A program made the translations under genes and the position numbers. Of a stretch of DNA of 64,000 nt, positions 9,479 to 64,000 are shown piece by piece. Numbering within the stretch: position 1 is the first letter of the stretch; each line of letters begins with the position of its first letter. The DNA comes from Candidatus Poribacteria bacterium (lineage in GTDB: Bacteria; Poribacteria; WGA-4E; WGA-3G). The notes below the pieces were generated by a model that was not told the origin of the DNA, made no database searches, and worked only from the letters and a program-made list of their open reading frames with translations. Where the stretch lies: the NCBI GenBank assembly GCA_963663765.2, contig CAXXUA010000003.1:224001-288000 (forward strand), in the 5' to 3' direction.

Positions 9479-9581
9479 ATAAATATAACTATAGGAAAGA
9501 CCACCAAGTCTTTTGGATGTCTATGTTTGAGGCTGTGGGATGCGAGACTGCATTATCCTAAGTCCAAAACGACTAACAGCC

Positions 9582-14741: not shown

Positions 14742-14776
14742 TGGGAATGTCATAAGACATTCATACCTTTGATGTG
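14742..14776 (+). repeat. Degenerate hairpin micro-insertion (GAATGTC-ataa-GACATTC-atacc-tttgatgtg)
   Basis: Same layout as 33048-33090 and the 27-bp array unit, with compensatory stem changes. Confidence 0.55.
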
Positions 14777-14840
14777 AACATCTGAGAATCCTGCAAATCT
14801 TGGTTCAGACATAATAAAAGACTTTACACCCCATAATTTT

Positions 14841-14869
14841 TTGACAAATTTACATTTTTATGTCATAAT
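14841..14869 (+). promoter_or_regulatory. Sigma70-type promoter for the PhyH gene
   Basis: TTGACA-17bp-(TG)-CATAAT. Confidence 0.55.
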
Positions 14870-14960
14870 TCCACACCTTAGTATTAGAAAATATTGACAT
14901 CTGGTTTTCATTCAAACTATAAGGGTCTACATGCAAACACACCGAAAGGGAGGTTGAGTT

Positions 14961-16115
14961 ATGGACTCAGATAAATCAACGACAACAGAAACTTACCGTG
15001 CAACCGCATTCGCTGATTTCAATCCAGAACATGCAGCACCAGGTGCCACACCAGAACGTTTAGCACACTTGAAAGAACAAGGTTTTGTCATCATCAACGA
15101 CTTTGTTGACAATCCGTGGATACCGATACTACGTGAAGCGGGTAGAGGTGTTACAGAAGCATGTGCACCTGAAAACAAATATGATGTAATTGACTGTTCA
15201 AAAGGGTACGTCCACAGAACAGGACAAGACCAACCGTGGGCAATTCGAGGAATCATTCATCCAGCATTCGGTGAATCCAGTTTTGCTGAATTCCACGGTT
15301 CAACTGAATTCTTAGACTTCGTGGCATCCTGGTGCTACGGACTTCAACCTGAAGATCTAACATTCAGCGGTATGCTGCTGTGGGCAAATCCACGCACACA
15401 TGAAAACAAACTCGGTTGGCACAGAGACGTGACATGGTGGGGGACGGGGAAAAGTTACTTTGCACAAAGGGAAGTCCGGGGCGATGGTCCTGAAGCATAC
15501 TCTGAAGAGACTGAAAGTAAAATTTGGAAAGAAATCCAAGAAAGAAACGTTAAGAACATAGAAAAACGGAACGGTGTAAGTATGTTTTTAGCACTTGTTG
15601 ACGACGAATGCCATGAACTCATCCCCGGCAGCCATGACAGATGGCGCACTCCTTATGAGCACGATGTACTACTGCCTAAAGCAATGAAAGATCAAGGTGT
15701 GCCGCATACACCAAGCTGGAATGGCACAGACCCCTTACCCGGACAAGTCGCAATACGACTAAAAGCGGGTGAAGCACTCATCCGAAACGGTGCAACAATC
15801 CACACAGGACACACTGTACCTGAACGCGAACGCAACACACTGTCAATCGGTTGGTCAAAATGGGGAGGTGAATTCACTGGAGAACCTTCCGTTACAGATG
15901 TCCGACATGCATGGCAGCTGGATTCAGCAGTAAGGGACACACTACCCCATGAATGGATGAAAACCGCATGGGATCGCTGGACAGAAACTCAAAAACTCGG
16001 CGATACACTTGAAGATCGTTACGTAGGATTTGATATTAGACACATCAAATCTGGAATGGTGCTTGGGTGGCGCGGCGAATTAGAACAGAAAGCCGCTGCT
16101 GGTAAAGAAGTCTAA
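14961..16115 (+). CDS. Phytanoyl-CoA dioxygenase (PhyH)-like Fe(II)/2OG oxygenase
   Basis: GFVII, WHRD, IPGSH and L.AGEA....TIHTG motifs; strong RBS GGGAGG. Confidence 0.75.
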   Translation: MDSDKSTTTETYRATAFADFNPEHAAPGATPERLAHLKEQGFVIINDFVDNPWIPILREAGRGVTEACAPENKYDVIDCSKGYVHRTGQDQPWAIRGIIHPAFGESSFAEFHGSTEFLDFVASWCYGLQPEDLTFSGMLLWANPRTHENKLGWHRDVTWWGTGKSYFAQREVRGDGPEAYSEETESKIWKEIQERNVKNIEKRNGVSMFLALVDDECHELIPGSHDRWRTPYEHDVLLPKAMKDQGVPHTPSWNGTDPLPGQVAIRLKAGEALIRNGATIHTGHTVPERERNTLSIGWSKWGGEFTGEPSVTDVRHAWQLDSAVRDTLPHEWMKTAWDRWTETQKLGDTLEDRYVGFDIRHIKSGMVLGWRGELEQKAAAGKEV

Positions 16116-17302
16116 TCTATCACCGATTCATAAACATCAACCAGTTTCTTCGCAATGTTGCGCCAATCGTAATCCTGTTCAACGCGCACACGACCACGCA
16201 GCCCTATTTTTTGACGTAACGAGATGTCTATTAGCAATCGGATGACCGCATCAGCAAACGCTTTCGGTTCATCAGCAATAAAAATATCTTCACCGTCTTG
16301 GAGTGCTAACCCCTCTGCACCCACGGTAGTGGACACAACCGCTTTCCCCATTGCTAACGCTTCAAGGATTTTGAGGCGCGTTCCACTTCCGATACGTAAT
16401 GGTACAACAAAAACTGTCGCCTCAGCAAAATAGGGTTTGATCTCAGGCACGCGTCCTGTGACCACAACACCTTCACGTTCAGCCAACTTTTGCACCCGTG
16501 CCGATGGTTTTCCACCAACAATAGAAAATCTGACATCCGACATACTCTTCTGAATTAACGGCAACACCTCTTCAGCAAAAAAGGCAACTGCGTCTTCGTT
16601 CGGATACCAATCCATACTGCCGATATAGATGAGGTGTGCGGAAGCCTCAACTTCAAAATCTGGAGAAAAATGCGTAACATCTACACCGTTCGGTACGACT
16701 TGGACAGCACCATCCTTGCAATACTTCTGAAAAACGGCAGCATCAATCTCAGACGTGCATGTAACCGCATCAAATTTCGGACTGAACACCCGCTCATAAC
16801 GTTGAAATGCAAGTTTCTGAGTCCAATACGCAAACTTGTAAAATAGATTCGTCGTTTCATCCTGTAGACGTTCCCAAATCGCAGAATCAACATTTTGTAA
16901 TGAAAGCACACTCGGAAGGTCGGTTTCTGTGTATAATTGTCCCGTGTGAAACATCTCATAGTGAACAAGGTCATAAGTTTCTGTTGACAACAATTCTTTG
17001 AATTTCTGCCTATATGCACCTACATTGTAACGGGCAACGGTGATGGGTTGTCTTTGGAAAAAAGCTGAAAGAAGTGTACTGAGTGATACGCGAGGTAACG
17101 AGGTGGTATTTGCTACAAGGTGTACGTTAATACCTAATTCCTGGAGATGTTCAATACTCTCAACATCTGTCGGCTGCGTCTCTAATGCAAGGAGGGACAC
17201 ATCGTTTTTTTCTGCAATCTGTTTGACGAGGTTATAGACGCGAATACGACCACCGTCTGTGAGAGGATAAGGCACGGTAGGCGAGAGGAAAAGTATCTTC
17301 AT
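16112..17302 (-). CDS. Glycosyltransferase family 4 (GT-B)
   Basis: PYP..DGGRIR, PNGVD, GSMDWYPN, GSGTRLKILEALAMG. Confidence 0.9.
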   Translation of the reverse strand: MKILFLSPTVPYPLTDGGRIRVYNLVKQIAEKNDVSLLALETQPTDVESIEHLQELGINVHLVANTTSLPRVSLSTLLSAFFQRQPITVARYNVGAYRQKFKELLSTETYDLVHYEMFHTGQLYTETDLPSVLSLQNVDSAIWERLQDETTNLFYKFAYWTQKLAFQRYERVFSPKFDAVTCTSEIDAAVFQKYCKDGAVQVVPNGVDVTHFSPDFEVEASAHLIYIGSMDWYPNEDAVAFFAEEVLPLIQKSMSDVRFSIVGGKPSARVQKLAEREGVVVTGRVPEIKPYFAEATVFVVPLRIGSGTRLKILEALAMGKAVVSTTVGAEGLALQDGEDIFIADEPKAFADAVIRLLIDISLRQKIGLRGRVRVEQDYDWRNIAKKLVDVYESVID

Positions 17303-17343
17303 GTTTAGGGGAAATTATTTCCAATATTAAACTAACGGGATTA

Positions 17344-18399
17344 TCACTTACTTGTCAACCCATCAAAAAATACAACCAACTTGTCTTTAAGTTGCTGACG
17401 TGAACTGAGGGAATGTTGGGGCGGCGTGAAAACAGTACCACGTTCTCGTTGTACCCATCCTTTCATACTCCCCTTTGCGCGGATAAGCAGCCATTTGCTT
17501 TCAAGATCAACAAAAACTTTCAACCATCCGTTCTCATTTCGGATGATGTATTTTTGAGAACCGTCCACCACATTCCAACTATTATCTACCTCTATTGTCC
17601 TAAGTTTAGCATTTCGTGATAGCGGTATCTCCTGCAACGTGAAACTTTGCTTTATTTCTTCAGATATTGATCCTTCGTTCAATGCGTTCATAGATGTTAA
17701 ATCCACACTAAAAAGAGACATTACAATAGGATACTTAGATTGTTGAAATACATCCAGTTTTTTGGTGCCATTTCGAATTTCATAAGACTGCTGTGTTTTG
17801 TTGTCAGTAATCAACCACGATTTACCAATCTTTTCAATTGTAGATTGCAAATCTGTTGATAGTGTAATGCGTTTATTGTTAAATGCCTCACGTAAGTTTG
17901 GAAGATAGATATCAAGACTATCACCTGCCTTCTCAATCCTATAGGCAGCCCCAGTTCTATCGGAAAGAACCCAATCCTGACCGCTGATTAACACTTCCAG
18001 TTTATGTGCACCCGAACTAAAACTCACATTTACATCCGCATCAGCAAACATTTTTTGCCAGTTATATTTAGTCTTTAATTCTTTATCTATTAATTCGTCA
18101 CCGTAACGTGAACGCATACCTAACACAACACTAAACAATAATTTCTCTGATAACACACCATAGTTCAAGTTGCTAATATATTTTTGGTCTATACTGAAAA
18201 GATATACATCTTTGGTATAAAACTTCGGTTTTGAGTTGACCGTTGGTCTGCCACGCACTGATGTACGCGAACGCACCTGCAATTTCGGCGGTTCTGTCTC
18301 TGGAATTGGCGGTGCTTGAAAAATATAGACACAGAAGCAGGCACCTACAAAAACAAAAATGAGAAAAACTAAGCCAATGCTCTTAAATACTGATTTCAT
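17344..18399 (-). CDS. Membrane-anchored protein: putative SH3-like domain split by three internal repeats
   Basis: N-terminal TM helix. SVRGRP and WLLIR...GWVQ flank three W..D...Y.I.....L.V[FY] repeats. Confidence 0.6.
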   Translation of the reverse strand: MKSVFKSIGLVFLIFVFVGACFCVYIFQAPPIPETEPPKLQVRSRTSVRGRPTVNSKPKFYTKDVYLFSIDQKYISNLNYGVLSEKLLFSVVLGMRSRYGDELIDKELKTKYNWQKMFADADVNVSFSSGAHKLEVLISGQDWVLSDRTGAAYRIEKAGDSLDIYLPNLREAFNNKRITLSTDLQSTIEKIGKSWLITDNKTQQSYEIRNGTKKLDVFQQSKYPIVMSLFSVDLTSMNALNEGSISEEIKQSFTLQEIPLSRNAKLRTIEVDNSWNVVDGSQKYIIRNENGWLKVFVDLESKWLLIRAKGSMKGWVQRERGTVFTPPQHSLSSRQQLKDKLVVFFDGLTSK

Positions 18400-18503
18400 A
18401 ACAATATTTCACAAGAAAAAAAACAATTCCAATTTTAAGACAATCTCTGCTGTTTAATTATAATATTAAATCACAGGAATATGCAAGGAATATCTAAAGG
18501 GTT

Positions 18504-19022
18504 GGTGTGTAAAGTTTTTGCACAAACATCCCACTCTCCATTGTAGGACATGTCTCTGTGCCCCGCCGCAACTGATTAAATGAGAGATTGCGGACACAGA
18601 GCTCTAATGAGTTTTGACGTTCAAGTTGTGTATTCGTAGGGGCGTGGTTGCCACGCCCGATCTACGCAAACTTAAAAACCAAACGGGTTGGCCAACCCAA
18701 CCCCTACGAATTCAACTACCGAATTTGATTGTCAAACTTCATTAGGTATCAATATAAAGAAATATTGTTAATATTAACCATATTCTTCAGTCCCGTAGGG
18801 ACGATATGTTTATAGAAATACATATCCCCACGTCTTTTTAGTCCCGACAAATGCCATACGCGCATTTGGCGTTGATTTGGTAGGGACGATATGTTTATCC
18901 TTCTATGTCGTTCCTACGGAACTAAAGAGAGGGGATGTGATAACGTCTTTCTATAAACATTGCGTCCCTACGGGACTAAAGAGAACAAAAGTTAGTACCT
19001 CTGTGCAAAAACTTTACACACC
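18504..19022. mobile_element. Composite MITE with 21-bp TIR GGTGTGTAAAGTTTTTGCACA, copy A
   Basis: Perfect TIRs. The backbone is an inverted copy of 28080-28876. It contains a nested TA-flanked MITE (18605-18744) with a REP pair and a 34-nt micro-insertion (18846-18879). Confidence 0.85.
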
Positions 19023-19189
19023 AGATCCACAACACCGCTATTGTATCAAGTGAAACATTTATGGTAAAATATTGAAATGGTATACGTTTTTCTTGGGAAT
19101 GGAACTCAAAACCATCAACCTCTAATCTTGTAAATCTTATAATCTTGAAAATCCTGGTTCAGACAAATGACAAAATTCTAAACATTGAC

Positions 19190-20491
19190 ATGCATACACT
19201 AAACCCATTAGCAGCTGAATTAAATCAACAAATCCGCGACACTTCTCCAGAAGTTTACGCGCTTCTCTCCGATTTAGGTAAACAAATCTACCTACCAAGA
19301 GGCATCCTAAGTCAAAGTGCTGAGGCAAGCGAAAAAGCATCTCGTTATAATGCAACCCGCGCAGTAGCATTAGCAGAGAAACAAATAATGCATCTGGACG
19401 TTTCGCATCATTTCGTCCCTGAACTGACACCTGAAACCGTTTACAACTATCCACCAATACTCGGCAACACGAAACTACGCAACGCATGGCAAACACACAT
19501 CCAAAAAAACAACCCACTACTTGCAGAGACAACACTCTGCCTCCCGATTGTGACAAGTGGAATGACACACGGCTTCAGTCTACTTGCCGATCTATTTGTC
19601 AATCTCGGTGACACGCTTGTTCTACCAGATAAAACATGGGGAAATTACAAACTTATATTCCAAACAAAAGTAGGAGCAAATATCCAATCCTATCCATTCT
19701 TTGATAGTGGCAAATGTTTCAACATCAGTGGATTTAGTGATGCCCTTTCAAAACATACCGGGAACAAAATGCTAATTCTACTGAACTTTCCTCACAATCC
19801 GACTGGATACGCTATCACACATGCCGAAGCACAACAAATCAGGAATTCGCTGCTCATGTGTGCAAAAACCGGATGTCGTATCCTTGTGATGATTGATGAC
19901 GCTTATGCTGGCTTTTACTACGATGACGCAGTCATGCAAGAATCACTTTTCGGTATGTTAGTAGATAGTCACAAAAATATCATTGCAGTGAAAATAGATG
20001 GAGCAACAAAAGAAGAATACGCATGGGGTTTACGTGTAGGTTTTATGACTTTCGGGCTTGCAGAAAAGGTGATGAAAGGAATTGAGGAAAAGTTAAGCGG
20101 ACTCATCCGCGCAAATACCTCTGGCGCATCACAAATCTCTCAAACGCTAATACTTGAAGCAATGAATGCACCAGAATATACAGAACAAAAACAACAAAAC
20201 TATCAAATCCTTAAGAAAAGAGCATTGAAGGTAAAACAGGTTGCGACTGATAAAAAATATGCAAACCTGTGGGAAGTCTACCCAAACCATGCGGGTTACT
20301 TCACATGCCTATCCCTAAAATCAGGTAATGCTGAAGAAATCCGTAATATACTTCTTGACGAACACGGTATCGGCATAATCGCACTAAGTGAAAATGAATT
20401 ACGAATTGCATATTCCTGTCTCCAAGAATCCGAAATTGAAGACGTCTTCAAAAAAATCGCACAAGTTGCCAGAACTATTCAATTGTCGTAA
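19190..20491 (+). CDS. Aminotransferase class I/II (PLP-dependent)
   Basis: NFPHNPTGY, DDAY, DGATKEEYAWGLRVGF. ATG 19190 is the likely start because the track start 19145 lies in an aatcctg..tcagaca repeat. Confidence 0.88.
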   Translation: MHTLNPLAAELNQQIRDTSPEVYALLSDLGKQIYLPRGILSQSAEASEKASRYNATRAVALAEKQIMHLDVSHHFVPELTPETVYNYPPILGNTKLRNAWQTHIQKNNPLLAETTLCLPIVTSGMTHGFSLLADLFVNLGDTLVLPDKTWGNYKLIFQTKVGANIQSYPFFDSGKCFNISGFSDALSKHTGNKMLILLNFPHNPTGYAITHAEAQQIRNSLLMCAKTGCRILVMIDDAYAGFYYDDAVMQESLFGMLVDSHKNIIAVKIDGATKEEYAWGLRVGFMTFGLAEKVMKGIEEKLSGLIRANTSGASQISQTLILEAMNAPEYTEQKQQNYQILKKRALKVKQVATDKKYANLWEVYPNHAGYFTCLSLKSGNAEEIRNILLDEHGIGIIALSENELRIAYSCLQESEIEDVFKKIAQVARTIQLS

Positions 20492-20553
20492 AGTGAAACA
20501 CGTAATGAATTAGTAAATTCAATACACAACATTACGCGCTTCACCAAAATGGA

Positions 20554-21141
20554 TTATTCCGTTAAGGTTATGACACCGCAACTAACTTGCGTGCCATCTG
20601 CTAAATCTCCAGATCCAATCTGTTCATGAATAACTAATACTTTACCGTTTATATCAGTTTCTGAATTGGTATCAAAAGTAAGGTCTACGAGATAACTACG
20701 GTTCCCGATCCCATTTACATCTGTTGTAAAAGAATAGGAATCAAAACCTTCAACATCCCAGATACTACCAGGAGTGTCGCAACTGTCCCCAGAATAGATA
20801 TATGCTGCGTACTTACGGTCAGGACCCGCATTCTGAATCTCAACATCAAAGTTCCGAATTATCGTGGATCCTATATCTTCAGTATCTGAATCTATATATT
20901 CCGTAAAAGTTGCTGTGCCAGTGATCCCACTTCCATTCTTTTCAGTGAGTGTTACTGTAATTGTCCTATTTTTAACAAGTATCGGTTCGGTAAATGCGTC
21001 GAGAAGTTCTGTTGTTGTCAAATTTTCGCAACCTGTGATGAAACATGCTGCGAGGATAAGAATAGTTAACATGCATAACTTATTATTTTTTAACGTAAAT
21101 ACGTTTGTTGCGTCAATAAAGGACGCTAAGTATTTGTACAT
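20554..21141 (-). CDS. Lipoprotein with Cu/Zn-SOD-like fold lacking most metal-binding histidines
   Basis: Lipobox FITGC. GTATFTE, GKVLVIHE and SCGVI resemble SodC, but the HGFHIH position reads YAAYIY. Confidence 0.6.
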   Translation of the reverse strand: MYKYLASFIDATNVFTLKNNKLCMLTILILAACFITGCENLTTTELLDAFTEPILVKNRTITVTLTEKNGSGITGTATFTEYIDSDTEDIGSTIIRNFDVEIQNAGPDRKYAAYIYSGDSCDTPGSIWDVEGFDSYSFTTDVNGIGNRSYLVDLTFDTNSETDINGKVLVIHEQIGSGDLADGTQVSCGVITLTE

Positions 21142-21622
21142 TTTGAATATCCCCTTTCTTACGCCAGGATTTGGCGTGTTTGAATTAGTTTGTTTGCCAC
21201 TTAGATATCTTTATGGATTAAATAAAAGAGACATGCCTTTGAATGTGGTTCTCTAAATAAACGAATATCTGGTTAATGTCTGGTGCCCTATAAGTTTACG
21301 AACCGAAAAACATCAGGCATATCTCAAGTCCTCAAATAACGAGGACGCTCTTTGAATTGGACTTTTCATAAATCTAAAACGATTTGTTAACAATGTCAAA
21401 ACTTTAATTGACTTTTCCATAATATATAGGCGGAGGTTTCAAGTCTCCCCGCAAGACTTGAAACGTTATTTTGCTTTAGTTTCTTCTGTGGTGGATTCTT
21501 TCTCTACACGCTTCCACCTGTCGCGAGTCCTATGAGTCTTTGTTATATTTGGTTATATTTGTTGTAAAAGGTATGCAGCTTGTGGGTAAATACTGAATTC
21601 CAAAAACATGCTCAATGTTGAT

Positions 21623-24600
21623 TTATTGCTTGTTCAAATGCTTATATGATAAATCTCCAAGTCCGATAAGTTGTAATCCCCCGTTTTCAGTGCCGACATA
21701 AAGCGTTTGGCCAGCAACAGCGACAGAAGTAGCAGTGTCTGGAATTTCTGGTGTTATCCGTTCCCAAGTGTTATCTGCACTTGTTAATCGATAGACCCCA
21801 CCTTGCGTATTCTTTGAGGAACTCACAGCATATAAAGTCGTGTTATCCGTAGTAAAACGGTCGAATATCAGCTGTTGTCCATCTAAATCGGTGATAATGT
21901 TCCATTCCGTGCCATCATTTGAATGCAAAGCACCTTTGTCTGTTGCAATCAAAACGGCTTCGTCAGTGATGAATATCTGCTTGAAAGAGACAACAGATAT
22001 TGGTAGTAAGACAGTATTCCAATTGCGTCCTCTATCAACAGAGCATAGGAGAACTCCATCAGGTTTGCCCACGTAGACAGTATCACCAGAAACACCTAAC
22101 GTGAAACGATTTAATGAGGTTAAATTCGCAAGATCACGAGTATCTTTGATATTAGGATCATGCCAACCTGCTTCGTCATTTTCTCGGGAAAAGTGACGCA
22201 GTATTAGCAGCTTTCGTTGGTGTTCAACGAACAATGTGTTACCACTGATAGCAAATGTACCTAAGATATTTGCCCCCATCTTGAAGAATTTTGATTGCAA
22301 ATTACGAGTATTTTCTCCATCATTCTCTACAGATGTCTGGACTGCTTCCATAAATGTTGCTATAAGATTCGTTCCTCCAAGTGTAGGAACACCTTGAATT
22401 GGAATAAGCGTGTCATTTTGTGCGTCTAAACGGAAAAAGTTTGGTTGGAGTGCTATGAGTCCTTTCGCGTAAAGGTTTCCATCTGCTAATACTAACTGTT
22501 GTATTCTTGCAATACTCTGTATTCTTGATTTGTTCAGTGGCACCTTCTTGTTATAAAAAGTCATCGTCATATCATCTGAATTAACAGGAATTGCTTGCCA
22601 TGATTGTCCATTGTTGGTTGATGTCACAAGTTTCTTATTTGCTATTGCATAGATTTTATTATTAAAGGCGATTAGATTCTGTATTTTGCCACCCAATCCG
22701 GAATTAAATCTGTTCCATGTGTACCCATCATCAGTTGAACGGCGAATTCCGTTGCTATCGCCTGTGTAAAATTGATGGTTCATACTTGTAGATTGATCCT
22801 GATTAGCGGTTCCACTAGGACTTTTTACATTCAAAGCAGCAATAACACGTTGACCTGAAGGGTGGACTAAACGTGCGGCTTCATCAACAGGCATCCATGT
22901 GTTTCCTTCATCAGTTGACCGTAAAGTGTCTTGTCCGATTAACAACACCGTTTTTCCTGCAGCAGCAATCGTCAGTGTTGCACTACGCTGATTTTTTTCA
23001 AAACCATTTTTCGGTGTTATATCTGTCCACGAATAGCCTTTATCTATTGACCTAAAGACTGTCCATAACGGTTGTCCACTTAGTACTGTCTTTAGTGTTT
23101 CCATAATACTTATATCGGAGAGAATTCTAAGTCGTCCTGCTACAATATAAATACGGTGTCCTACCACTGCAATTGCGTGAATGGATTGGGATTCTGCTAC
23201 CGGTAATTGTTCCCAAACACCTGATTTATCAGGACTCTCTTCAAAATAAGGTTTCATGTTGATGCGGAAGAGTCCTTTATCAGTACCAGCAAATAGTACC
23301 TTTTCTGCGGAAGTTATCGTATATATTCTTCTGTCTGCCAAACCTTTGTTTAGCGATGACCAAGAAACACATCTGTCATCAGAGTAAAATATGCCTTGAA
23401 GGAGAGCGAGATAAATCGCAATGGAGTCTGCTGTGTTATCCTTTACGACTACACCAATGGCATGTCCTTTCGGATAAGTACCGAGTGGTGTCCAAGTTTT
23501 GCCTTTGTCTTCCGATGCGAGTATTTCATCATCAGTTACAATATAAAGGGTGTCATTGTGCTCTACCATCGGTGTTGTGTCCTCCGAGGTTGGGAGACTA
23601 TTATTAATTAAATCCCACTTTTGGTTTTCATCTGTCATTCGATACAACCCTATTTGAGTCAATGCATAAAGATCATTTGATTTAGTGGCAAATAGTGTAG
23701 GCACTTTTACAGACTCAGGACTGTCAAACTGAGTCCACCATTCCGTTGAGAGTTGCTCCGCTGTTTCAATGGTCTGGAAAATATTGGTAAGGTTTACGTT
23801 TTGAGAGGTATCCGTTTTCTCGCCAATTCCTTGATTGTTACTGGGAATATCAGTGTTCCCAAGTTGATTACGCTGTTCAGGTTTTATTTCCTGTTCAATA
23901 TTGGTAGGAGTTTCAACGATTTCGACCATTAACACTGATTCGGAATCAAGATCATAAGGTAGAAAAGAAAGAGAAAGGTGTTGTATTCCAATACCTATTA
24001 AAAAAAGAACTAAAATAGCAGAGGCAGCAGAAAGGACCCACGGCAATAAAGGTTTGCTGCCTGAAGGAACAACAGGATTGGTGCGTGATATTTCCTTCAT
24101 TATGTTCTCTGTCAATTGTGTTGGGAGTTGGAAGCTGCTAAGATTCTCTCTAATTGTCGCTTCTTCCTTCTTTAGGCGGTTGCGAGCGCGATTCAGTCGA
24201 CTTTTTACCGTATTCAAAGATACACCGATCATCTTACTAATCGTTTCACAGGTCATTTCTCCGAGATAATGGAGTGTCATGACCGTGCGTTCACTCTCAG
24301 GTAGTTTTTGGAGTAGTTTTTGGACAACTTCACGTAAGGTCTCAGTCGTTTCAATGTCGCGCTTTTCTACCATATACTGTGAATGTGACACTTGATCAAT
24401 CTCCGTTATATCTGTCGTTTCTATTGATTGTATTGGAAGCCGTTTCTTTCGGTACCAGTCAGTACATAGGTTAGACGCAATCACATATATCCAACCTGGA
24501 AACAAGTTGTGGTCTTTCAAAGTTCTAAGTCTTTCATAAGCTCTGAGAAAGGCATCTTGGGTAATTTCCTGTGCTATGTGAAAATCTCCAATTTTACGCC

Positions 24601-24706
24601 ATGCAAGCGCGTGAATCCCTTTTTGGTATTTTTCAACGAGCTCTGTAAATGCTGTTTGATCACCGTCTAATGTCCGCTGAATCAATTCAGAATCGTTATT
24701 ATGCAT
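21623..24706 (-). CDS. ECF sigma-70 factor fused through a TM helix to an extracytoplasmic BNR/YCF48-like beta-propeller
   Basis: Sigma region 2 (AQEITQDAFLRAY, FPGWIY) and region 4 (LPESERTV, VKSRLNRAR); TM at about aa 220-242; several S.D.G.TW Asp-box repeats. Confidence 0.88.
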   Translation of the reverse strand: MHNNDSELIQRTLDGDQTAFTELVEKYQKGIHALAWRKIGDFHIAQEITQDAFLRAYERLRTLKDHNLFPGWIYVIASNLCTDWYRKKRLPIQSIETTDITEIDQVSHSQYMVEKRDIETTETLREVVQKLLQKLPESERTVMTLHYLGEMTCETISKMIGVSLNTVKSRLNRARNRLKKEEATIRENLSSFQLPTQLTENIMKEISRTNPVVPSGSKPLLPWVLSAASAILVLFLIGIGIQHLSLSFLPYDLDSESVLMVEIVETPTNIEQEIKPEQRNQLGNTDIPSNNQGIGEKTDTSQNVNLTNIFQTIETAEQLSTEWWTQFDSPESVKVPTLFATKSNDLYALTQIGLYRMTDENQKWDLINNSLPTSEDTTPMVEHNDTLYIVTDDEILASEDKGKTWTPLGTYPKGHAIGVVVKDNTADSIAIYLALLQGIFYSDDRCVSWSSLNKGLADRRIYTITSAEKVLFAGTDKGLFRINMKPYFEESPDKSGVWEQLPVAESQSIHAIAVVGHRIYIVAGRLRILSDISIMETLKTVLSGQPLWTVFRSIDKGYSWTDITPKNGFEKNQRSATLTIAAAGKTVLLIGQDTLRSTDEGNTWMPVDEAARLVHPSGQRVIAALNVKSPSGTANQDQSTSMNHQFYTGDSNGIRRSTDDGYTWNRFNSGLGGKIQNLIAFNNKIYAIANKKLVTSTNNGQSWQAIPVNSDDMTMTFYNKKVPLNKSRIQSIARIQQLVLADGNLYAKGLIALQPNFFRLDAQNDTLIPIQGVPTLGGTNLIATFMEAVQTSVENDGENTRNLQSKFFKMGANILGTFAISGNTLFVEHQRKLLILRHFSRENDEAGWHDPNIKDTRDLANLTSLNRFTLGVSGDTVYVGKPDGVLLCSVDRGRNWNTVLLPISVVSFKQIFITDEAVLIATDKGALHSNDGTEWNIITDLDGQQLIFDRFTTDNTTLYAVSSSKNTQGGVYRLTSADNTWERITPEIPDTATSVAVAGQTLYVGTENGGLQLIGLGDLSYKHLNKQ

Positions 24707-25165
24707 AAAATTTTCTCCAGAGTAGTACCACTACTTAACTTAAGTGACGAGATTAAAAATTAAAAAGGTTGCATTTTTTTAGAAAATAAACAGACTGCAC
24801 ACTTATGGAGTTGATTCATACACTTTCAACCTGCCAATCTTCTCCATTCCGAAAATAACGCCATACTTATGGGAAATCCTAATAAACAAACAGCAGAAAA
24901 CATCACATATCACATAACTATGATGTATAATATATCCCATGAAACACCAAACCAACATTCTACCATATATAAAAAGCCTAACGAAAAAAACCTCAAAAAA
25001 AGGTTAAATACGGGTAAATACGGGAGTCTGATTCTATAAACAGAGAAATTGTATATGAATCTAACTCGTATTCAGAATGTACCCAACTTCGTATTTAAGA
25101 CGTTAAAGTTAAGTAGTAAGTCTCACCTTAAAAATGTACACCCGAAAATAGATGGAGTTTATAAA

Positions 25166-27112
25166 ATGAAATTGAAAACTCTCGGCCTTATCAGTATTGT
25201 AGTCTTTATTTTAGGAAATATAGTGGTTGCAGAAGGATCATCCGGCATAGACAAACGAAATATCTTTGTCGGTGCAAGCGCACGAGCCGTCGGTATGGGA
25301 AGCGCATTTACCGCTGGACCCTCAGCAAATAACGGCTTTCTCTGGAATCCCTCCTCACTTGGGTTCATGAACGGATTGGAAGTGAACATGGGCGGTATTC
25401 CGTTTTCAGGTGATTCTTCAGGACCTGATCAGGCATTCTCATTAGCAGCAAGTCCAAACAGTCTCGGTATAATCAACAGAAATATCGGCAGTCTCTCTTT
25501 TGCATCTTGGTTCAATGGATGGAATAATAGCAATGACGAATCTACTCAGATTGTGCTCTTAGGATACGGTATCGCACTCGGAAAACATGCCTCCGCAGGT
25601 GCAAACTTACGATACTATCAAAACAACAAACCAACCAGAACCAACTATCTTTGGAGCGTTGATATCGGAATGCAGGCGACCTATCCACTTAAAAGGTTCG
25701 GGGATTCGGTCACATTGGGAATAAATCTATCGGAGTTAAGCAACGGAATACGCGATGCAGAAGGTGCGTTGATTAAACCTTTAGATGAAAGTATGCCGTT
25801 AACAACACGCTTCGGTTTGACATATCGTCCAGACAGTTCAACGCTATTATCCGCTGATATGGCTATCCGAGGAAAAAATGATGCGAGTTGGGGAGAAAGG
25901 TTACGCGTACATTTCGGTGTAGAACGATGGTTATTCCGAAAACACTTAGGTCTTCGCGTCGGATATACTGCACTTACTGCCTCTGAAAGATTTAGTGCAG
26001 GTCAATGGACACAAGGAATTAGCTTTCAGAACGCTACAGGACAGTTGGATTACGCCCATGTCAAAGGCGGCGATTTAGATCAAAGTCTACATTGGATTTC
26101 GGCGACTTTACGGTGGGGTGGGAAAAAGAAAGACTCCGCACATACTGAGAAAAAACCTTCTGTTACAGAGGTAAAGCACCAAGATGTTTCTAATACAAAC
26201 ACAACACCACCAATACTGATGCCAAAAACGCTGGATACGGAGACTGAAAATGTCGTTTCTTCTAGGGAATTACAACTTTCCGAAACAGCAATTTCTCCCA
26301 ACAGTGACGGCAATGCGGATACAACTACAATCCGCTTTCAAGTTAAAACAAATGAAAAATGGAAATTGACGCTCCACGATGCATATACAGAACAGGTCTG
26401 GGAAAAATCTGGGACAGGATCACCAACAGAAGGTGTTGTCTGGGATGGAAAAGGAAATGCCGATAAGGTGGTAACAGATGGAGATTATGTCGCACAATTG
26501 TATATCATAGACGAAAAAGGTACACCACATCTCAGAAGTAGTCAAAAAATCACTGTTGATCTGATTCCAGCAACATTAGAAATCTCTAAAAAATCAGACA
26601 CAAGTGTAGCAGTAAAAACTTGGGACATCAATTCCATTGCTGCTTGGAAACTGGAGATCTACGACGCGGCAAATAAACTGGTTGAAAAGAGTGAAGGAAA
26701 AGGTTCACCACCAGAAAACATCGTCCTGACGAAAATCCCGCAGTTGACATCAAAATCCTACAAATTTACCATAAGTGTTAGAGATATTGCAGGAAATCAG
26801 ACCGTTCAACAGGCACAATTACTGTTCGGTAGTGGACAACAAACCGTTAGTGGAACTGATACCACTGATAAACCCAAGTTAGTCCTTATGGTCGGATCAT
26901 TTACTGAGAGACGCAATGCGAACATGTTGGCTGATAACCTAAAACGCTTATATCCGAATGAGCAGGTAAAAATATACACGGTTTCAGTGAACGGGACAAC
27001 AATGCACCGGGTGACAATCGGGGAATTCACAGAACGATCAGAAGCGGCAGGACTCAAACAGCAAATTCAGGAGTCGCAAGGTGTTGAACCAATTTTGATT
27101 ACACCTCAATAG
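25166..27112 (+). CDS. Secreted protein: PorV-like beta-barrel + FlgD/Ig-like domains + C-terminal SPOR domain
   Basis: Signal peptide; GASARAVGMGSAF and WNPSSL; ISPNSDG..D and WDGK...VTDGDY; VGSF....A...HRVTIGEF..R.EA. ATG 25166 follows GGAG. Confidence 0.75.
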   Translation: MKLKTLGLISIVVFILGNIVVAEGSSGIDKRNIFVGASARAVGMGSAFTAGPSANNGFLWNPSSLGFMNGLEVNMGGIPFSGDSSGPDQAFSLAASPNSLGIINRNIGSLSFASWFNGWNNSNDESTQIVLLGYGIALGKHASAGANLRYYQNNKPTRTNYLWSVDIGMQATYPLKRFGDSVTLGINLSELSNGIRDAEGALIKPLDESMPLTTRFGLTYRPDSSTLLSADMAIRGKNDASWGERLRVHFGVERWLFRKHLGLRVGYTALTASERFSAGQWTQGISFQNATGQLDYAHVKGGDLDQSLHWISATLRWGGKKKDSAHTEKKPSVTEVKHQDVSNTNTTPPILMPKTLDTETENVVSSRELQLSETAISPNSDGNADTTTIRFQVKTNEKWKLTLHDAYTEQVWEKSGTGSPTEGVVWDGKGNADKVVTDGDYVAQLYIIDEKGTPHLRSSQKITVDLIPATLEISKKSDTSVAVKTWDINSIAAWKLEIYDAANKLVEKSEGKGSPPENIVLTKIPQLTSKSYKFTISVRDIAGNQTVQQAQLLFGSGQQTVSGTDTTDKPKLVLMVGSFTERRNANMLADNLKRLYPNEQVKIYTVSVNGTTMHRVTIGEFTERSEAAGLKQQIQESQGVEPILITPQ

Positions 27113-27145
27113 ATGTCGCACCTTGATGATAGAGCTAACACGTTC

Positions 27146-27985
27146 TCACATTTTGTAGAAATCTAAACCGTTCTGGTACAAGAATTGGTTTTTCTCTGCA
27201 TCAGTTGCATCGTCAATAACCGAGAGTAATGCCTCAAACCACTGACAATATTTGGCAGCTAAGGTGCAGACAGGCCAATCGCTACCAAACATAAGGCGAT
27301 CATAACCAAAGACTTCTACAAGATGTAGAATGTAAGGCTTTAGTTCCTCTGCGGTCCACTCTTCACTGGCAGTTGTAACAATACCCGATACCTTACAGTA
27401 TACATTGTCAAACGTGGCGAGTTTACGCATGTAGGTTGCCCACGGTTCAAACGTTCCATCTTTTATATTCGGTCCGCCACAGTGGTTGACTGCATGACGA
27501 ACCTCAGGGGTCGCTTTCACCAATTCCACTGCAGCAGGAAGTTGATCGTCTTTCGCACAGAGATCGAAAGAGAGATTGTATTTCGTTAATAATTTCACAC
27601 CGTTTATAAGTTCGGGAGTAGCGTAAAACTGGTTGTCCGTGCGGTGCCATGCCATCCTACGAATACCCACAATGAGATCAAACCCCGCAAGTTTTTCCAG
27701 GACAACCTCAACGTTGGGCTTCTCCAGTGGTGCTGCGGCGACAATTGCACCGATCATTCCATCTGTTTCAGCAATATTTGTTAGCCATTCCACTTCTTGC
27801 ACAACATACGTCTCGGCAGGATCACCTTCCACGTGAACAGATTTGACGACATTTATGTCCCCGACAGCATCACGGTAATTCTGCGGTGTATATTTCTGTT
27901 GAAGTAGATCAAATCCCTCTAACCACGGATAGTCTAAAATAGAAGTATCCCACAGATGTTGGTGCGTATCAATTATTTTTTGCAT
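27146..27985 (-). CDS. Amidohydrolase-2 family (L-fuconolactonase-like)
   Basis: IIDTHQHLWD, NHCGGP, NVYCKVSG, RLMFGSDWPV. ATG 27985 follows AAGGAGG. Confidence 0.88.
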   Translation of the reverse strand: MQKIIDTHQHLWDTSILDYPWLEGFDLLQQKYTPQNYRDAVGDINVVKSVHVEGDPAETYVVQEVEWLTNIAETDGMIGAIVAAAPLEKPNVEVVLEKLAGFDLIVGIRRMAWHRTDNQFYATPELINGVKLLTKYNLSFDLCAKDDQLPAAVELVKATPEVRHAVNHCGGPNIKDGTFEPWATYMRKLATFDNVYCKVSGIVTTASEEWTAEELKPYILHLVEVFGYDRLMFGSDWPVCTLAAKYCQWFEALLSVIDDATDAEKNQFLYQNGLDFYKM

Positions 27986-28420
27986 GTGCCTCCTTTTTAA
28001 CTGGCAAAAAGACCTATTCACTTGATCATATAGTAACTTACAATATTGGACATCAGAAAAATAAAATCACTAAACAAAGGGTGTGTAAAGTTTTTGCACA
28101 GAGGTACTAACTTTTGTTCTCTTTAGTCCCGTAGGGACGCAATGTTTATAGAAAGACGTTATAACATCCCCTCTCTTTAGTTCCGTAGGAACGACATAGA
28201 AGGATAAACATATCGTCCCTACCAAATCAACGCCAAATGCGCGTATGGCATTTGGCGGGACTAAAAAGACGTGGGGATATGTATTTCTATAAACATATCG
28301 TCCCTACGGGACTGAAGAATATGGTTAGTATTAACAATATTTCTTTATATTGACAACACCTATGGGTCCTGTTCCCGCAATCTCTTATTTAATCAGTTGC
28401 GGCGGGGCACAGAGACCCCA

Positions 28421-28594
28421 TAGGTGTCAACTTAAGGATTTTGACCTCTTGTGGGAGGGGTTTTCAACCCCGTCAGAAGCCAAACGCGCTTCTGACGTTG
28501 ATTTGGATTTTTTAGTGCATTTCCACTCAAATCGGGCTTACAAAGCCCTCCCACAAGAGAATATGCAAACACTTTTTTCTTAAATTGACACCTA
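28421..28594. mobile_element. TA-flanked MITE (TAGGTGTCAAcTTAAG ends) carrying an inverted REP pair
   Basis: taggtgtcaacttaag ... cttaaattgacaccta; relatives at 43228-43364 and 58956-59092. Confidence 0.75.
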
Positions 28595-28614
28595 TGCGGC
28601 GGACACAGAGACCC

Positions 28615-28829
28615 GGGGAATGCCTAAATTGACATTCATACCCGGGGAATACCATAAGGTATTCATACCAGGGGAATACCATAAGGTATTCATACCAGGG
28701 GAATACCATAAGGTATTCATACCAGGGGAATACCATAAGGTATTCATACCAGGGGAATACCATAAGGTATTCATACCAGGGGAATACCATAAGGTATTCA
28801 TACCGTTGATTTCTTGATTACTTGATTTC
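28615..28829 (+). repeat. Tandem array of a 27-bp hairpin unit (6 copies + 1 variant) ending in TTGATT repeats
   Basis: GGGGAATACCATAAGGTATTCATACCA x6 (28644-28804) with no spacers; tail gttgatttc-ttgattac-ttgatttc. Confidence 0.95.
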
Positions 28830-28955
28830 GTCCTACAATGGAGAGTGGGATGCTTGTGCAAAAACTTTACACACCTCTAAACAAAGATTGGTAATACCTA
28901 TGGTTTTATGTTAACATGCTACATAGAGAAATTCAACTATTGGAAAGTTCACTGA

Positions 28956-29735: not shown

Positions 29736-29770
29736 AAGATTCACGCCATAGTCAAGGAAATATTAACGAA

Positions 29771-30967: not shown

Positions 30968-31018
30968 GGTGGTATTTATATCTATGAAGTCACTTGAATA
31001 TAAAAATAAAGTTCAGCG

Positions 31019-31777: not shown

Positions 31778-31805
31778 TATTGTGGTTCCTCCTTAGATAG
31801 AAACA

Positions 31806-32933: not shown

Positions 32934-33012
32934 AACCTTCCCTTTATAAATAATACTATAAACCATGTTGTCTTGTCAAGATTTAATTAACGATTAATTC
33001 AATTTAGCATTA

Positions 33013-33144
33013 TACCAAATTAACCTAAATCGTAGGGACAGGTCTCCGGGGAATGCCAAAAGGCATTCATACCGTTGATTACTTGATTTGGTACCCGCCC
33101 GTGTTCTCCACATTAAAATCAATACAAATCACATTAATTTGGTA
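33013..33144. mobile_element. TACCAAATTAA-ended MITE whose REP carries a 43-nt hairpin micro-insertion (33048-33090)
   Basis: Aligns to the reverse complement of 10209-10296 except for inserted ggggaatgccaaaaggcattcataccgttgattacttgatttg. Confidence 0.75.
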
Positions 33145-33228
33145 TTACTTGTGTTGATTGTAAAAGCTTCCAACCCTAATAATAGTGTGTTTACACATTA
33201 ACATCGAATATTTTACAATAACAAAGTC

Positions 33229-33382
33229 ATACCATTTCTTATATAATGTCTCATTAGCTGCGGAGATCTGGTAGGAGCGACCTCCTGGTCGCGACCGGGA
33301 GGTCGCTCCTACCGTAGAGAGGACTTCTAACCAACGATAACAGTGGAATTCCTTATGAAACAAGTATTATTAGAAATGGTAT
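33229..33382. mobile_element. MITE (ATACCATTTCT TIRs) containing a 44-bp GTAG REP doublet palindrome
   Basis: ataccatttct / agaaatggtat; ggtaggagcgacctcctggtcgcgaccgggaggtcgctcctacc at 33270-33313. Confidence 0.65.
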
Positions 33383-36300
33383 TATTCCGTTTTAGGTAAG
33401 GTTGGGAGTGTGAGACGTGGACGGTCACCGAAATCGGGGAGTTCGGGTGGGTTCTCTTCCATCTCTTGCAGGAGTATCTCTATTGCCTTATCAAGTTGTG
33501 GGTCACCTTCAGCGATATAATCTTGTGGACGATAATCCACTTCAATGTCTGGGTCGGTGCCGTAGTTCTCAACGCTCCAACCGACATCAACGAACCAGAA
33601 AGAATACTCAGGTTGTGTTGTCCGTCCTCCATCAACAAATCCTTGATGTGGTGAGATACCGATAACACCTCCCCACGTGCGTTTGCCGATAAGTTGCCCT
33701 AATCCCATCAGTTTGAAGCAGTGTGAAAAGATGTCCCCATCGGAACCAGCGTTTTCGTTTGTGACAGCGATCATCGGACCTAACACGGAAGCAGTGGGAT
33801 ATGGGTGCGGTGTACCCCAACGTGGAATATCATATCCGATACGTCGGCGAGATAACTTCTCTAAAATTAGTTGTGACACATTGCCACCGCCGTTGTAGCG
33901 TACATCAACGAGTAAACCGGGATAACTCACTTCAGCAAGATAGCCGCGATGAAACTCAGCATAACCACGACTTCCCATATCGGGAATATGGACGTATCCG
34001 ACCTTACCATCTGTCTTTTCATGAACGTATTTCCGATTTTGCGCGACCCATTCGCGATAACGTAATTCGCCTTCGCCACCAAGTACCTTGATCGTAACAA
34101 CACGTTTCTCATCATCACTTTTATTCTTGAATGTGGTTTGCACCTCTTGTCCACCAAGACTTATTAATAACTCACCAGGTGAAACATTTTCGCTAAGCGG
34201 TTGTCCACCGATAGAAAGGAGGATATCCCCTTCTTGGATGTTGATACCGGGAGCATTGAGTGGTGAGGTTCTTCTATCATTCCATGTGTCGCCACGAACG
34301 ATATGTGTGATGCGATAGCCGTTGTTGTCTGGGTCGTAAACAAAATCAGCACCGAGAAAACCTTGTCCGTAGTTAGGTGAACTGCGGTAATCTCCACCAG
34401 ATTCATAAGCGTGTGAGGTGCCGAGTTCACCTTGCATTTCCCACATAAGGTCAGAAAATTCGGCACGGGTGGCAATTCTTTCCAGTTGTGGCAGATACCG
34501 TTGATACACGTTTTCCCAATCAACATCGGACATATCCTCAGTCCAGAAATAATCGCGCTGCAGTCGCCATGCTTCTCGATACATCTGTTTCCATTCAGCT
34601 GTGGGTATCACAGAGGGTCTGGCGCGATTGATTTCTATCCAACCGTTATGTCTGGGGTTGCCACCTTTATTATCAGGTTTTTGGTCCCCCTCTGCTTTTC
34701 TACCTGCTTTTATGATACGCAACCGATTTCCTGTGCGATATAAAAGGCTTTTGTAATCTCGCGAAAGTTGGAAGGAGTCAATATCTGGAACGAGTACATC
34801 TTTTTTCTGCTCTTTAAAATCGTAAGCGTGGAGTTTACCTTTCGCACTTGAACCATCACCTTCAGGGGTATTTTGCGCGTGCTGAACAGGAAAAGAAGTA
34901 AAAATCGCTTTGCCTTCAATACCAGCAATCTGTCTGTAACGTCCGTGTGAATAGGGAAAAGCAACAACGCGCTGTTCAATACCGTCTAACTCAATTTTGA
35001 TAGGTTTTTTCTTTTTCTCATCCTTTTGCTCATTAGAATCACCATCTTTTTCCTCGGAATTTTCTTCAGTATCCTTGTCGCCATTTTCCTTTTTATCTTT
35101 TTCCTTTTCATCTTCAGGTGGCGGTGTGGTAGGAAGAAACGGGTTCGGTAGTTCTTTCTGCAAAGTTACCAATAATGGTCGTGTGGCAATAGGAAAACTA
35201 AGTTCAAACTGCAACGCATCACCGACAGGGTCAAATTCACGATGAGAAAGAAAATAGAGATACTTTCCGTCTGGATCCCAAGCGGGAGCATAATCACTGA
35301 ATTCAGTTTTCGTGATATACGTAGTTTCTCCTGTTTCAATGTTGCACAGTTTGATTGACGATGTGGTCTCAGTAGCGGGAAAACTGTATACGATCCATTT
35401 TCCATCAGGTGACCATTTTGCACCTTGAATTCGATTATATAGACTTTTGTCAAGCACACGCATTTCCAGCTTTTCAAGTTCTATGTGCAGCAGTTCAAAA
35501 CGTTGGTTGACGATGAGGAGTTGGTCTTTCAGGTCATCCCCTTTCGGGCAGACAGCAAGTTGACGCACATGTCCTATGTCCAGTTCATCAAGACGGCGTA
35601 CTTCTTCACTCCCATCGCATGTGTGAATTTCAAGAGCTTCTTCACCATCAGCATCTGAAAGCGTCAAGATACGTTTGCCATCATTTAACCATCGTGGCAT
35701 ACGATACCGGGTGCCGTTGCGTTCTCCGTGCTGGAGGACAGCACCATCCCAGTTTGCCATCGTAAAAAGTTTGCCACGGGAAGTAAACGTTATAGATCGA
35801 CCGTCTGCGGACGGTGCGTAATCTTGAAGGTACTGTGAGGCGTTGACGAATTTGCGTTGGCGTTGAATGCGCGGACTGCGGAATTCCACGTCAACTTGAT
35901 GGTTTGTATCCTTTTCTATATCATAAATCCATAAATCGGCACCTGCATGATAGACAATGTGGTCACCATCAGTTTGTGCTGATCGTGCATAATAGGTTTC
36001 CTGATGTGTGTGCCGTTGTATGTCTTCACCAGAGGTTTGGCAGGAATAGATATTTCCAACGCCTTCATGGTCAGAGATAAAGTAGATACGATCCCCAATC
36101 CATAAGGGAGTCGTGAAATTGCTTTCAACAGGTGCAAAGGGTTCAAACTCCCCATTCCCATCAGTATCAATCCAGAGTTGTCCTGCCGTACCGCCACGAT
36201 AGCGTTTCCATCGTGCGGGTTCACGAGTTAACCTTCCAAGAACAACGCCACCGTTTTCTCCAAATGCAATGTGGTTAGCAGGACCATAAGGAAGTCGTTT

Positions 36301-36669
36301 CGGTTCACCACCATCAGGAGAGATGCTCCATAACCATGCGCCAAATGCCGATCCTGCACCACTGGAATAGAGGATGTTTTGTCCATCCGTATCCCATCCG
36401 ACAATACTTGCATTGCTTCCTTGGTAAGTAAGTCGTTTTGCTTCTCCTCCGAGTGCGGGCATGATATAGACTTCTGCTGGACCTTCTTCGCGTCCAGCAA
36501 AAGCAAGAAGTTCACCGTTTGGTGATAACTGTGGGGAACTGGTTGCGCCTAAATTTGATGTGAGTCTACGTGCTAAACCTCCTCTTACTGGAACTGTCCA
36601 TAAATCATCTTCACAAACAAAAACAATGGTGTCATTTGAAACAGTTGGAAATCGATAGTATCCTGACAT
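33382..36669 (-). CDS. Tricorn protease homolog (peptidase S41, beta-propellers + PDZ)
   Basis: YYRFP..IVF..EDDLW, WKRYRGG, GELGTSH, DVRYNGGG, NENAGSDGD, GKRTWGG. Confidence 0.95.
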   Translation of the reverse strand: MSGYYRFPTVSNDTIVFVCEDDLWTVPVRGGLARRLTSNLGATSSPQLSPNGELLAFAGREEGPAEVYIMPALGGEAKRLTYQGSNASIVGWDTDGQNILYSSGAGSAFGAWLWSISPDGGEPKRLPYGPANHIAFGENGGVVLGRLTREPARWKRYRGGTAGQLWIDTDGNGEFEPFAPVESNFTTPLWIGDRIYFISDHEGVGNIYSCQTSGEDIQRHTHQETYYARSAQTDGDHIVYHAGADLWIYDIEKDTNHQVDVEFRSPRIQRQRKFVNASQYLQDYAPSADGRSITFTSRGKLFTMANWDGAVLQHGERNGTRYRMPRWLNDGKRILTLSDADGEEALEIHTCDGSEEVRRLDELDIGHVRQLAVCPKGDDLKDQLLIVNQRFELLHIELEKLEMRVLDKSLYNRIQGAKWSPDGKWIVYSFPATETTSSIKLCNIETGETTYITKTEFSDYAPAWDPDGKYLYFLSHREFDPVGDALQFELSFPIATRPLLVTLQKELPNPFLPTTPPPEDEKEKDKKENGDKDTEENSEEKDGDSNEQKDEKKKKPIKIELDGIEQRVVAFPYSHGRYRQIAGIEGKAIFTSFPVQHAQNTPEGDGSSAKGKLHAYDFKEQKKDVLVPDIDSFQLSRDYKSLLYRTGNRLRIIKAGRKAEGDQKPDNKGGNPRHNGWIEINRARPSVIPTAEWKQMYREAWRLQRDYFWTEDMSDVDWENVYQRYLPQLERIATRAEFSDLMWEMQGELGTSHAYESGGDYRSSPNYGQGFLGADFVYDPDNNGYRITHIVRGDTWNDRRTSPLNAPGINIQEGDILLSIGGQPLSENVSPGELLISLGGQEVQTTFKNKSDDEKRVVTIKVLGGEGELRYREWVAQNRKYVHEKTDGKVGYVHIPDMGSRGYAEFHRGYLAEVSYPGLLVDVRYNGGGNVSQLILEKLSRRRIGYDIPRWGTPHPYPTASVLGPMIAVTNENAGSDGDIFSHCFKLMGLGQLIGKRTWGGVIGISPHQGFVDGGRTTQPEYSFWFVDVGWSVENYGTDPDIEVDYRPQDYIAEGDPQLDKAIEILLQEMEENPPELPDFGDRPRLTLPTLPKTE

Positions 36670-36817
36670 TTACACCTCCATAGAAAGAAATAACATTATA
36701 CTGAAAACAAGGTACAGAAAATATGAAAGGCGAGGCACCAAACCGCATCAACGGTAAGCAGCATAAGCACACATGACTTATGCCATGATTCGTTGGAGAC
36801 CTCGCCCTATAAATTTG

Positions 36818-63999: not shown

Positions 64000-64000
64000 T

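Follow-up and report, generated by a model that had tools for sequence, protein, structure and literature searches.

How DNA units that are too small to encode or to resemble a transposon multiply has been a question since 2008, when the small dispersed repeats (SDR) SDR1-8 of Nostoc punctiforme and its relatives, 21-27 nt in length, were reportedly described by Elhai et al. (Genome Res 18:1484), who are also said to have proposed that these cyanobacterial repeats spread by way of RNA. One of them, SDR5, is placed exactly between bases 3 and 4 of the highly iterated palindrome HIP1, as stated in PMC4390886. Here we analyse a stretch of 64,000 nucleotides from the genome of a sponge symbiont of Candidatus Poribacteria (positions 224001-288000 of contig C3 of genome G000, hereafter the window; the genome comprises 6.35 Mb in 15 contigs, has 41% G+C and is 97.8% complete), which contains copies of a unit of 34-43 nt that consists of a hairpin and a tail of octamers. 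We consider it probable that these units form a family of non-autonomous, structure-dependent, SDR-like micro-insertions, which would be a second, independent case, in an unrelated uncultivated phylum. Such a family is apparently undescribed so far within the literature searched, as a first-pass annotation of the window had supposed, although the kind of element itself was described in 2008; neither the core 12-mer of the family nor any work on poribacterial repetitive extragenic palindromic (REP) sequences, REP-associated tyrosine transposases (RAYT) or miniature inverted-repeat transposable elements (MITE) was found in that literature.

Two types of unit are distinguished. Type A reads G[A/C]CAAATGC-CATACGC-GCATTTGGC, directly followed by GTTGATTTG, and type B consists of GGG, GAATGCC, a loop of 4-5 nt, GGCATTC, ATACC and GTTGATTT, followed by (CTTGATTT)n and often by a final G. 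The common plan is a hairpin of 7-9 bp, a short spacer, which is ATACC in type B and absent from type A, and at least one octamer of the form (G/C)TTGATTT. Types A and B are alignable over their full length, and a bridging form, which combines the frame of type B with the loop of type A, occurs 37 times in the genome; together with the co-varying stems treated below, this supports the view, already taken in the first-pass annotation, that both types are one structure-conserved family. Two models were used in searches, R1 for type B and R2 for type A, with a cut-off for non-members of E<=1. The relevant features of the window are as follows (+, forward strand; -, reverse strand).

about 10250..10275, -, empty host of the unit at 33048, GGGTCTCT directly followed by GTACCCG (sequence comparison)

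14742..14776, +, degenerate type B unit with the stem GAATGTC/GACATTC and the decayed tail TTTGATGTG (R1 31.5 bits, E about 1e-6; outside the training set)

18790..18802, +, empty REP1 site GTCCCGTAGGGAC (from sequence; 602 empty and 135 filled sites of this kind genome-wide, by pattern count)

18846..18879, +, type A unit, GAC variant with one A.G stem mismatch, in REP1 between GTCCC and GTAGGGAC (R2 63.8 bits; fold -6.3 kcal/mol)

28223..28256, -, type A unit, GCC variant with a perfect 9-bp stem, in an inverted copy of the REP1 cluster (R2 64.3 bits; -9.5 kcal/mol, z -3.15)

28446..28559, +, host MITE with the ends CTCTTGTGGGAGGG and CCCTCCCACAAGAG, bearing a type A' unit (filled and empty copies at other loci)

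28472..28505, +, the type A' unit, stem GTCAGAAGC/GCTTCTGAC, at AACCCC^GATTTT (R2 59.3 bits; fold)

28615..28828, +, type B array between CACAGAGACCC and CGTCCTACAATGG, 8 hairpin units followed by 3 tail octamers (R1)

33048..33090, +, type B unit with an AAAA loop and two octamers, within a REP loop that bears the GTAG tag (GGTCTCC^GTACCCG; R1 57.1 bits)

36739..36794, -, unique 56-nt hairpin-bearing stretch in a REP-like loop, membership not supported (no R1 or R2 match at the cut-off; self-match only)

Within the window, R2 matched at 18843-18879 (+), 28223-28259 (-) and 28469-28505 (+), and R1 at 33048, 28779 and 14742 as well as at the tail-less hairpins from 28615 to 28777. In the array, seven of the eight units are identical, with the stem GAATACC/GGTATTC and a period of 27 nt. 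Copies that had been pointed out from the letters of the window alone were recovered in this way, namely the two type A units, with the single mismatch in the copy at 18846 and the empty site at 18790-18802, the type A' unit, which has their length and tail and differs by three compensatory pairs, the unit at 33048 with its empty host on the minus strand, the array, and the degenerate member at 14742. The stretch at 36739-36794, listed earlier as a probable member, was not confirmed and is left out of the family, as neither model matches it and the genome holds no second copy. The units at 18846 and 28223, moreover, count as one insertion that was later duplicated, since the larger REP cluster around them is the same in both places and merely inverted.

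These inverted REP1 clusters (18770-18960 and 28150-28330), both with a type A insert, stand on either side of a block of genes 9.3 kb in length, and some contigs from public runs join the two (18818 to 28119 and 18818 to 28179), which may reflect either repeat artefacts or a rearrangement.

The genome contains 550 copies of GTTGATTTG and 465 of GGCATTCATACC, while the reversed control pattern had no match in any of the 41 genomes searched, so that the hairpin units are more abundant than expected by chance. A structural screen limited to type B yielded 352 runs with 487 hairpin units in total; type A was counted by separate searches, which gave 61 copies (fuzzy match), 90 (loop and tail) or 135 (filled REP1 sites, nested forms included). 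The type B runs measure 34-36 nt in 196 cases, 42-44 nt in 71 and 70-72 nt in 38, and carry between 1 and 6 octamers at the 3' end, single hairpins having mostly one (196/289) and double hairpins mostly two (41/53). For the two-hairpin runs a model of nested insertion was rejected, since it did not reproduce the junction bases. A loose screen gave 57 orphan 3' halves of type B; a longer parent element was considered and likewise rejected, since the orphan halves were in large part either units whose loop had received a further small element, or matches due to chance.

The small element just mentioned, with the ends ATGAAGATTAAT.../...ATTAATCTTCAT, is present in type B hairpin loops at C2:89669-89850, near 1018252 on C5 (minus strand) and elsewhere, and forms with them three layers, hairpin within hairpin. 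A further composite, 'type C', has about 23 copies or more (e.g. C2:135273 and C15:150043) and is built on the type B frame, the region of the 3' arm being occupied by an A-like hairpin in inverted orientation, GAAGCATGC-GCGTATG-GCATGCTCC.

As DNA, the units fold with -5.5 to -9.5 kcal/mol (z -1.9 to -3.7). Covariation was found in both types: six of the nine stem pairs of type A are altered on both sides (18 distinct rows from four genomes), as are three of the seven pairs of type B (22 rows). Pairing in type A reaches 94.4% of cells, a value attained by none of 500 partner shuffles, and drops to 23-49% in slid registers. Both sets of rows were chosen with a hairpin filter, which biases them toward pairing; without that filter, 90 instances defined by loop and tail (14 distinct arm pairs) gave 88.1% paired cells, compared with 78.5% on average and 84.9% at most after shuffling. 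Additional stems in the type B frame are GAAGTGC/GCACTTC, GAAGTCC/GGACTTC and GAAGCCC/GGGCTTC, all from genus g13. The stem is kept by compensatory change, which points to selection on the fold.

At least 10 host repeats occur in the genome both with and without a unit. Besides REP1, with the counts given above, these include REP2 (179 filled, 358 empty), the CATACGC loop of A-type hairpins (62 filled, 125 empty) and the MITE (15 filled and also empty copies, on whose number two empty-site patterns disagreed). The host CACAGAGACCC^CGCCCTACAA, with 7 filled and 7 exact empty copies, has no base in common with the insert, and the ends of the insert are therefore GGGG...TTT, whereas in other hosts a single G at the boundary is ambiguous. 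GGGG likewise forms the 5' end in 343 of the 352 type B runs, type A starting with GAC or GCC. Neither target-site duplications (TSD) nor terminal inverted repeats (TIR) nor open reading frames (ORF) were found in the units when filled and empty copies were paired, which bears out the earlier reading of the window. The target CC^G given in that reading holds for type A, where CC precedes and G follows the unit in 59 of 61 copies each, but only partly for type B, where the base at -1 is C in 302 of the 352 runs (112 of 140 distinct contexts), that at -2 is G, C or A, that at -3 is mixed, and that at +1 is G in 253 runs. In asymmetric hosts, unit orientation is fixed (179:1, 133:2 and 67:2).

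Precise insertion into REP-type repeats, as originally claimed, is thus accompanied by insertion into the family's own units: units have entered REP hairpins with the GTAG tag, a MITE, and other units, either in the loop or where hairpin and tail meet, and they often sit in the loops of REPs (at 33048, in REP3 and in REP1). In 208 of the 352 type B runs both flanking 14-mers are repeated in the genome; in only 27 is neither repeated, and about 22 of these were by eye diverged copies of known hosts. REP arrays with the GTAG tag flank an intact RAYT (C4:621598-622074), which has both the HUH and the Y motif. A second RAYT, truncated at a contig end, is preceded by a REP2 array, and a RAYT pseudogene (C5:1704569-1705200), of which about 35 codons are left, has REP3 on its flanks and is interrupted by a REP1 cluster. 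Because their host REPs flank RAYT genes, the units constitute a second layer inside genuine REPs.

Such layering could also come about with no transposition at all, if the units were mosaic modules comparable to bacterial interspersed mosaic elements (BIME) and were distributed by ectopic gene conversion or recombination, replication slippage and rare, microhomology-driven template switching at hairpins. Indeed, subfamilies are host-specific, with TAAAT mostly in REP2 (54), TTAAT mostly in the loops of type A (37), AAAA in REP2b (22) and AATA in one host only (16); hairpin units and octamers form tandem arrays, nearly all units lie inside other repeats, and 68% of them are on the C-rich strand, the same bias as in empty hosts (65-67%). 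Genomes that are rich in copies and free of HUH enzymes (see below) fit as well, because no enzyme would be needed. However, one and the same unit, complete and with an unchanged 5' end, recurs in 10 or more contexts that are unrelated to each other, and its hosts in genus g13 are different altogether; its orientation is fixed, its boundaries coincide with the structural unit, and the compensatory changes in the stem imply selection on the fold. A table of hosts by subfamilies has 63 non-empty cells, and therefore the same subfamily entered several hosts. Taken as a complete account of the family, recombination among modules strikes us as rather improbable.

The type B 17-mer is present in all 40 genomes of the same genus, with 1 to 466 copies (reversed control 0), and the genome studied here has the highest copy number. 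Copy number thus differs more than 100-fold between species, and scanning the genome and its relatives, as proposed in the first-pass annotation, brought many further copies. By genus, R1 matched in 39 of 39 genomes in g1, 57 of 65 in g13 and one of one in g12, and in none of the six genomes of g9, g10 and g11, so the family spans two large genera and the single genome of a third, all within one family of Poribacteria. The g13 genomes that are negative include G063, G067, G089, G092, G098, G107, G108 and G125, and G003, G009 and G020 hold almost no copies. The host repeats of g13 differ from those of our genome, and there, too, one unit is nested in another at CCATAC^GC (locus L175). Outside this family, one of 51 genomes in a phylum-wide sample had an R1 match. 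The window was without matches in Rfam at the gathering score, a plasmid collection gave no match, and viral contigs gave no exact 20-mer.

The lone match from another family is a perfect type B unit (G163:C13:7957-7992) in a metagenome-assembled genome that is 88% complete and 5% contaminated; it may be misbinned or the result of a transfer.

With regard to the catalyst, the first-pass annotation had favoured a resident Y1 HUH enzyme (TnpA of IS200/IS605 insertion sequences (IS), or RAYT), which would move the units as single-stranded DNA, with the hairpin as binding site and TTGAT as cleavage motif. Y1 HUH is the only candidate enzyme class found in the genome (four IS605 tnpA genes, one intact RAYT, one RAYT cut by the contig end and one pseudogene), RVT_1 and the IS110 DEDD domain (PF01548) both having given no match there, and the lack of TSD and TIR, the conserved hairpin, the fixed orientation and the targets in hairpin-forming REPs are all in line with it. 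The fit is poor, however. Resident IS200/IS605 copies are preceded by TTAT (17/17) or TTAAC (4/4) instead of TTGAT or C^G. The likeness between the apical loop of the units and the IS605 end hairpins, also noted earlier, stands for a 12-nt apex, TGCC-TTTA-GGCA, which at the right end of ISb differs from the complementary strand of type B by a single change in the loop; the remainder of the hairpins differs. The units have one hairpin rather than separate left and right ends, with a single conserved flanking base, and the E. coli rule for the TnpA that acts on REPs (PMC3479197) predicts cleavage at C^T for a GTAG guide, as opposed to the C^G junctions found here.

Nor do enzyme and units go together in position or in phyletic pattern. 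Only six of 74 IS605-type gene segments have a unit within 600 nt, and the motif is nearby at two of 30 RAYT loci and at none of 30 Y1 loci in g13. PF01797 (E<=1e-5) has no match in three genomes with many copies (G024, in one contig, with 131; G001 with 96; G010 with 109), but 20 matches in G009, which has only 3 copies. Y1 genes were present in all 41 g13 genomes sampled, including four without an R1 match (G067, G089, G092 and G098). Within our genus, genomes with a RAYT homologue do have more copies than those without (median 71 vs 28.5; n 20+20, Mann-Whitney p 0.015, uncorrected for kinship), an association which is confounded because more REPs also mean more hosts. On balance, we regard a Y1 HUH catalyst as unlikely.

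Two resident elements of the IS200/IS605 group occur in the window itself. One, of 1427 nt, has tnpB only (8057-9483, -) and about 20 copies in the genome with 97-99.5% identity; full copies are preceded by TTAT and end in ...GGGGAGTATGTCAG, and the element, though without tnpA, appears to have been recently active. The other has tnpA and tnpB, measures about 1750 nt (62513-64000 and beyond), follows TTAAC in three full copies and one split copy, and probably supplies the former with TnpA.

Alternatively, a transcript of the unit could have been copied back into DNA, the octamer tail resulting from repeated copying of the 3' end. The variable number of 3' octamers is compatible with this, RNA of this sequence would form the hairpin just as well, and a conceptual precedent reportedly exists in the cyanobacterial SDRs. 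We nevertheless hold spread through RNA to be highly unlikely: the genome with the highest copy number, complete to 97.8%, has no RVT_1 match, copies truncated at the 5' end are few (the 57 orphan 3' halves, many of them otherwise explained), and the units show no orientation preference with respect to genes (171 same, 160 opposite).

Finally, the units could depend on an insertion system that is new, i.e. neither HUH nor reverse transcriptase nor IS110 nor DDE, and that places folded hairpins of about 35 nt, with no duplication, after C in hairpins prone to be single-stranded, the loops of its own units included. We see in this a speculative and rather unlikely solution; if true, the units would be mobile DNA of a minimal class, served by a catalyst of their own, which could be found by phyletic profiling (g1 and g13 positive; g9-g11 and eight g13 genomes negative). 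In any case, the family offers hundreds of copies, exact ends, a one-base target preference, filled and empty sites and a sharp phyletic boundary. Because of the exact ends and of that boundary within one family, it is feasible both to look for the gene behind the insertions and to test the matter biochemically.

To return to the reading that we prefer, SDR-like micro-insertions would spread by occasional true insertion into new sites that form hairpins and are prone to be single-stranded, most likely carried out by a trans-acting enzyme that recognises the strand in its folded, single-stranded state. Since the linkage between host and subfamily is strong, most copies probably arose by riding on a host, and copy number would accordingly grow mainly as host REPs multiply, further copies stemming from local tandem growth of hairpin units and of tail octamers. 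Several points weigh against this interpretation. The same linkage means that independent insertions are far fewer than copies. No movement event was seen in the public runs, which consist of short-read Logan contigs only; these break at repeats, none crosses the repeat clusters of the window, and their cover ends near 18533-19072, 28105-28802 and 33075-33285. All four public runs examined contain contigs in which precisely 28472-28505 is missing, but these may stem from paralogues of the host MITE. The units are not accompanied by any candidate enzyme, and the H-C-H runs with two octamers (41/53) are not derivable from two simple insertions without a change of a junction base. The strand bias, lastly, which was considered as a sign of single-strand transposition and of a preference for the lagging-strand template, is not diagnostic and gives no mechanistic support, because it equals that of empty hosts and has the opposite sign in the closed relative G094, where forward units are in excess by 50:8 and the plus strand is the G-rich one.

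In two closed relatives, unit density, and not orientation alone, is uneven round the chromosome: in G094:C1, of 50 units between 0.56 and 3.16 Mb 47 are forward, with few units elsewhere, and in G022:C1 about 60 consecutive forward matches lie between 0.89 and 3.0 Mb. A role of the units as terminators was considered unlikely, given the absence of a preferred orientation to neighbouring genes and the occurrence of 123 units in divergent as against 59 in convergent spacers.

The layered repeats also affect the genome at a larger scale. The spacer between the ABC-2 and amidohydrolase genes (28022-28955 in the window) measures 934 nt and is made up almost entirely of such repeats. In relatives, this spacer measures about 90-455 nt at 17 loci and about 1300 nt at one, as judged from 80 acetate kinase loci (73-92% identity), 18 of which have both flanking genes and which are too distant for comparison at the level of bases. 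It is thus the layered repeats that have expanded the spacer to its present length, and they also break short-read assemblies of sponge symbionts.

Among described elements, several resemble the family in part. DDE-type MITEs differ in that the units are without TIR and TSD, and derivation from IS110 is at odds with the lack of an IS110 DEDD match in the genome. The core site of integron attC, GTTRRRY, resembles the tail GTTGATT, but this likeness was rejected, as there is neither an inverse core nor a GTT in the targets. With the BIMEs of enterobacteria, which are variable intergenic arrays of REP hairpins and short conserved modules, the family has this composition in common; the module here, however, is a co-varying hairpin which occurs in many unrelated hosts and is nested in itself. 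With IS200/IS605 elements and palindrome-associated transposable elements (PATE), the units share the lack of TIR and TSD, a hairpin near the end and insertion beside a fixed base. They differ in having one hairpin in place of left and right ends and no conserved target of 4-5 nt; the local IS have ends and targets unlike those of the units, and are linked to them neither spatially nor phyletically.

REPs and their paired form, the REPINs, are likewise short extragenic hairpins, clade-specific, present in hundreds of copies and presumed to move as single strands. Yet neither GTAG nor CGTC stands at the 5' foot of the units' hairpin on the top strand (in type B, GTAT is found on the complementary one), the units do not flank RAYTs (two of 30 loci), which are flanked by other REPs, their tandems are direct and not inverted doublets (the screens having been aimed at direct arrays only), and they occur inside REPs as a second layer. 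The greatest likeness is to the cyanobacterial SDRs, which reportedly also are very short dispersed units without ORF, TIR or TSD, keep a common fold by compensatory mutation, have a precise and short insertion site, lie inside other repeats and their own copies, and are limited to one coherent clade. Their reported length of 21-27 nt means that the units described here do not rank among the smallest of their kind, as had been suggested from the window. The two groups differ in phylum (Poribacteria vs Cyanobacteria), length (34-43 nt vs 21-27 nt), the tail of repeated octamers, and hosts (REPs of RAYT type vs HIP1 and heptamers); because of these differences, and with SDRs compared by description only, we do not file the family as a member of the SDRs and place it beside them as SDR-like.

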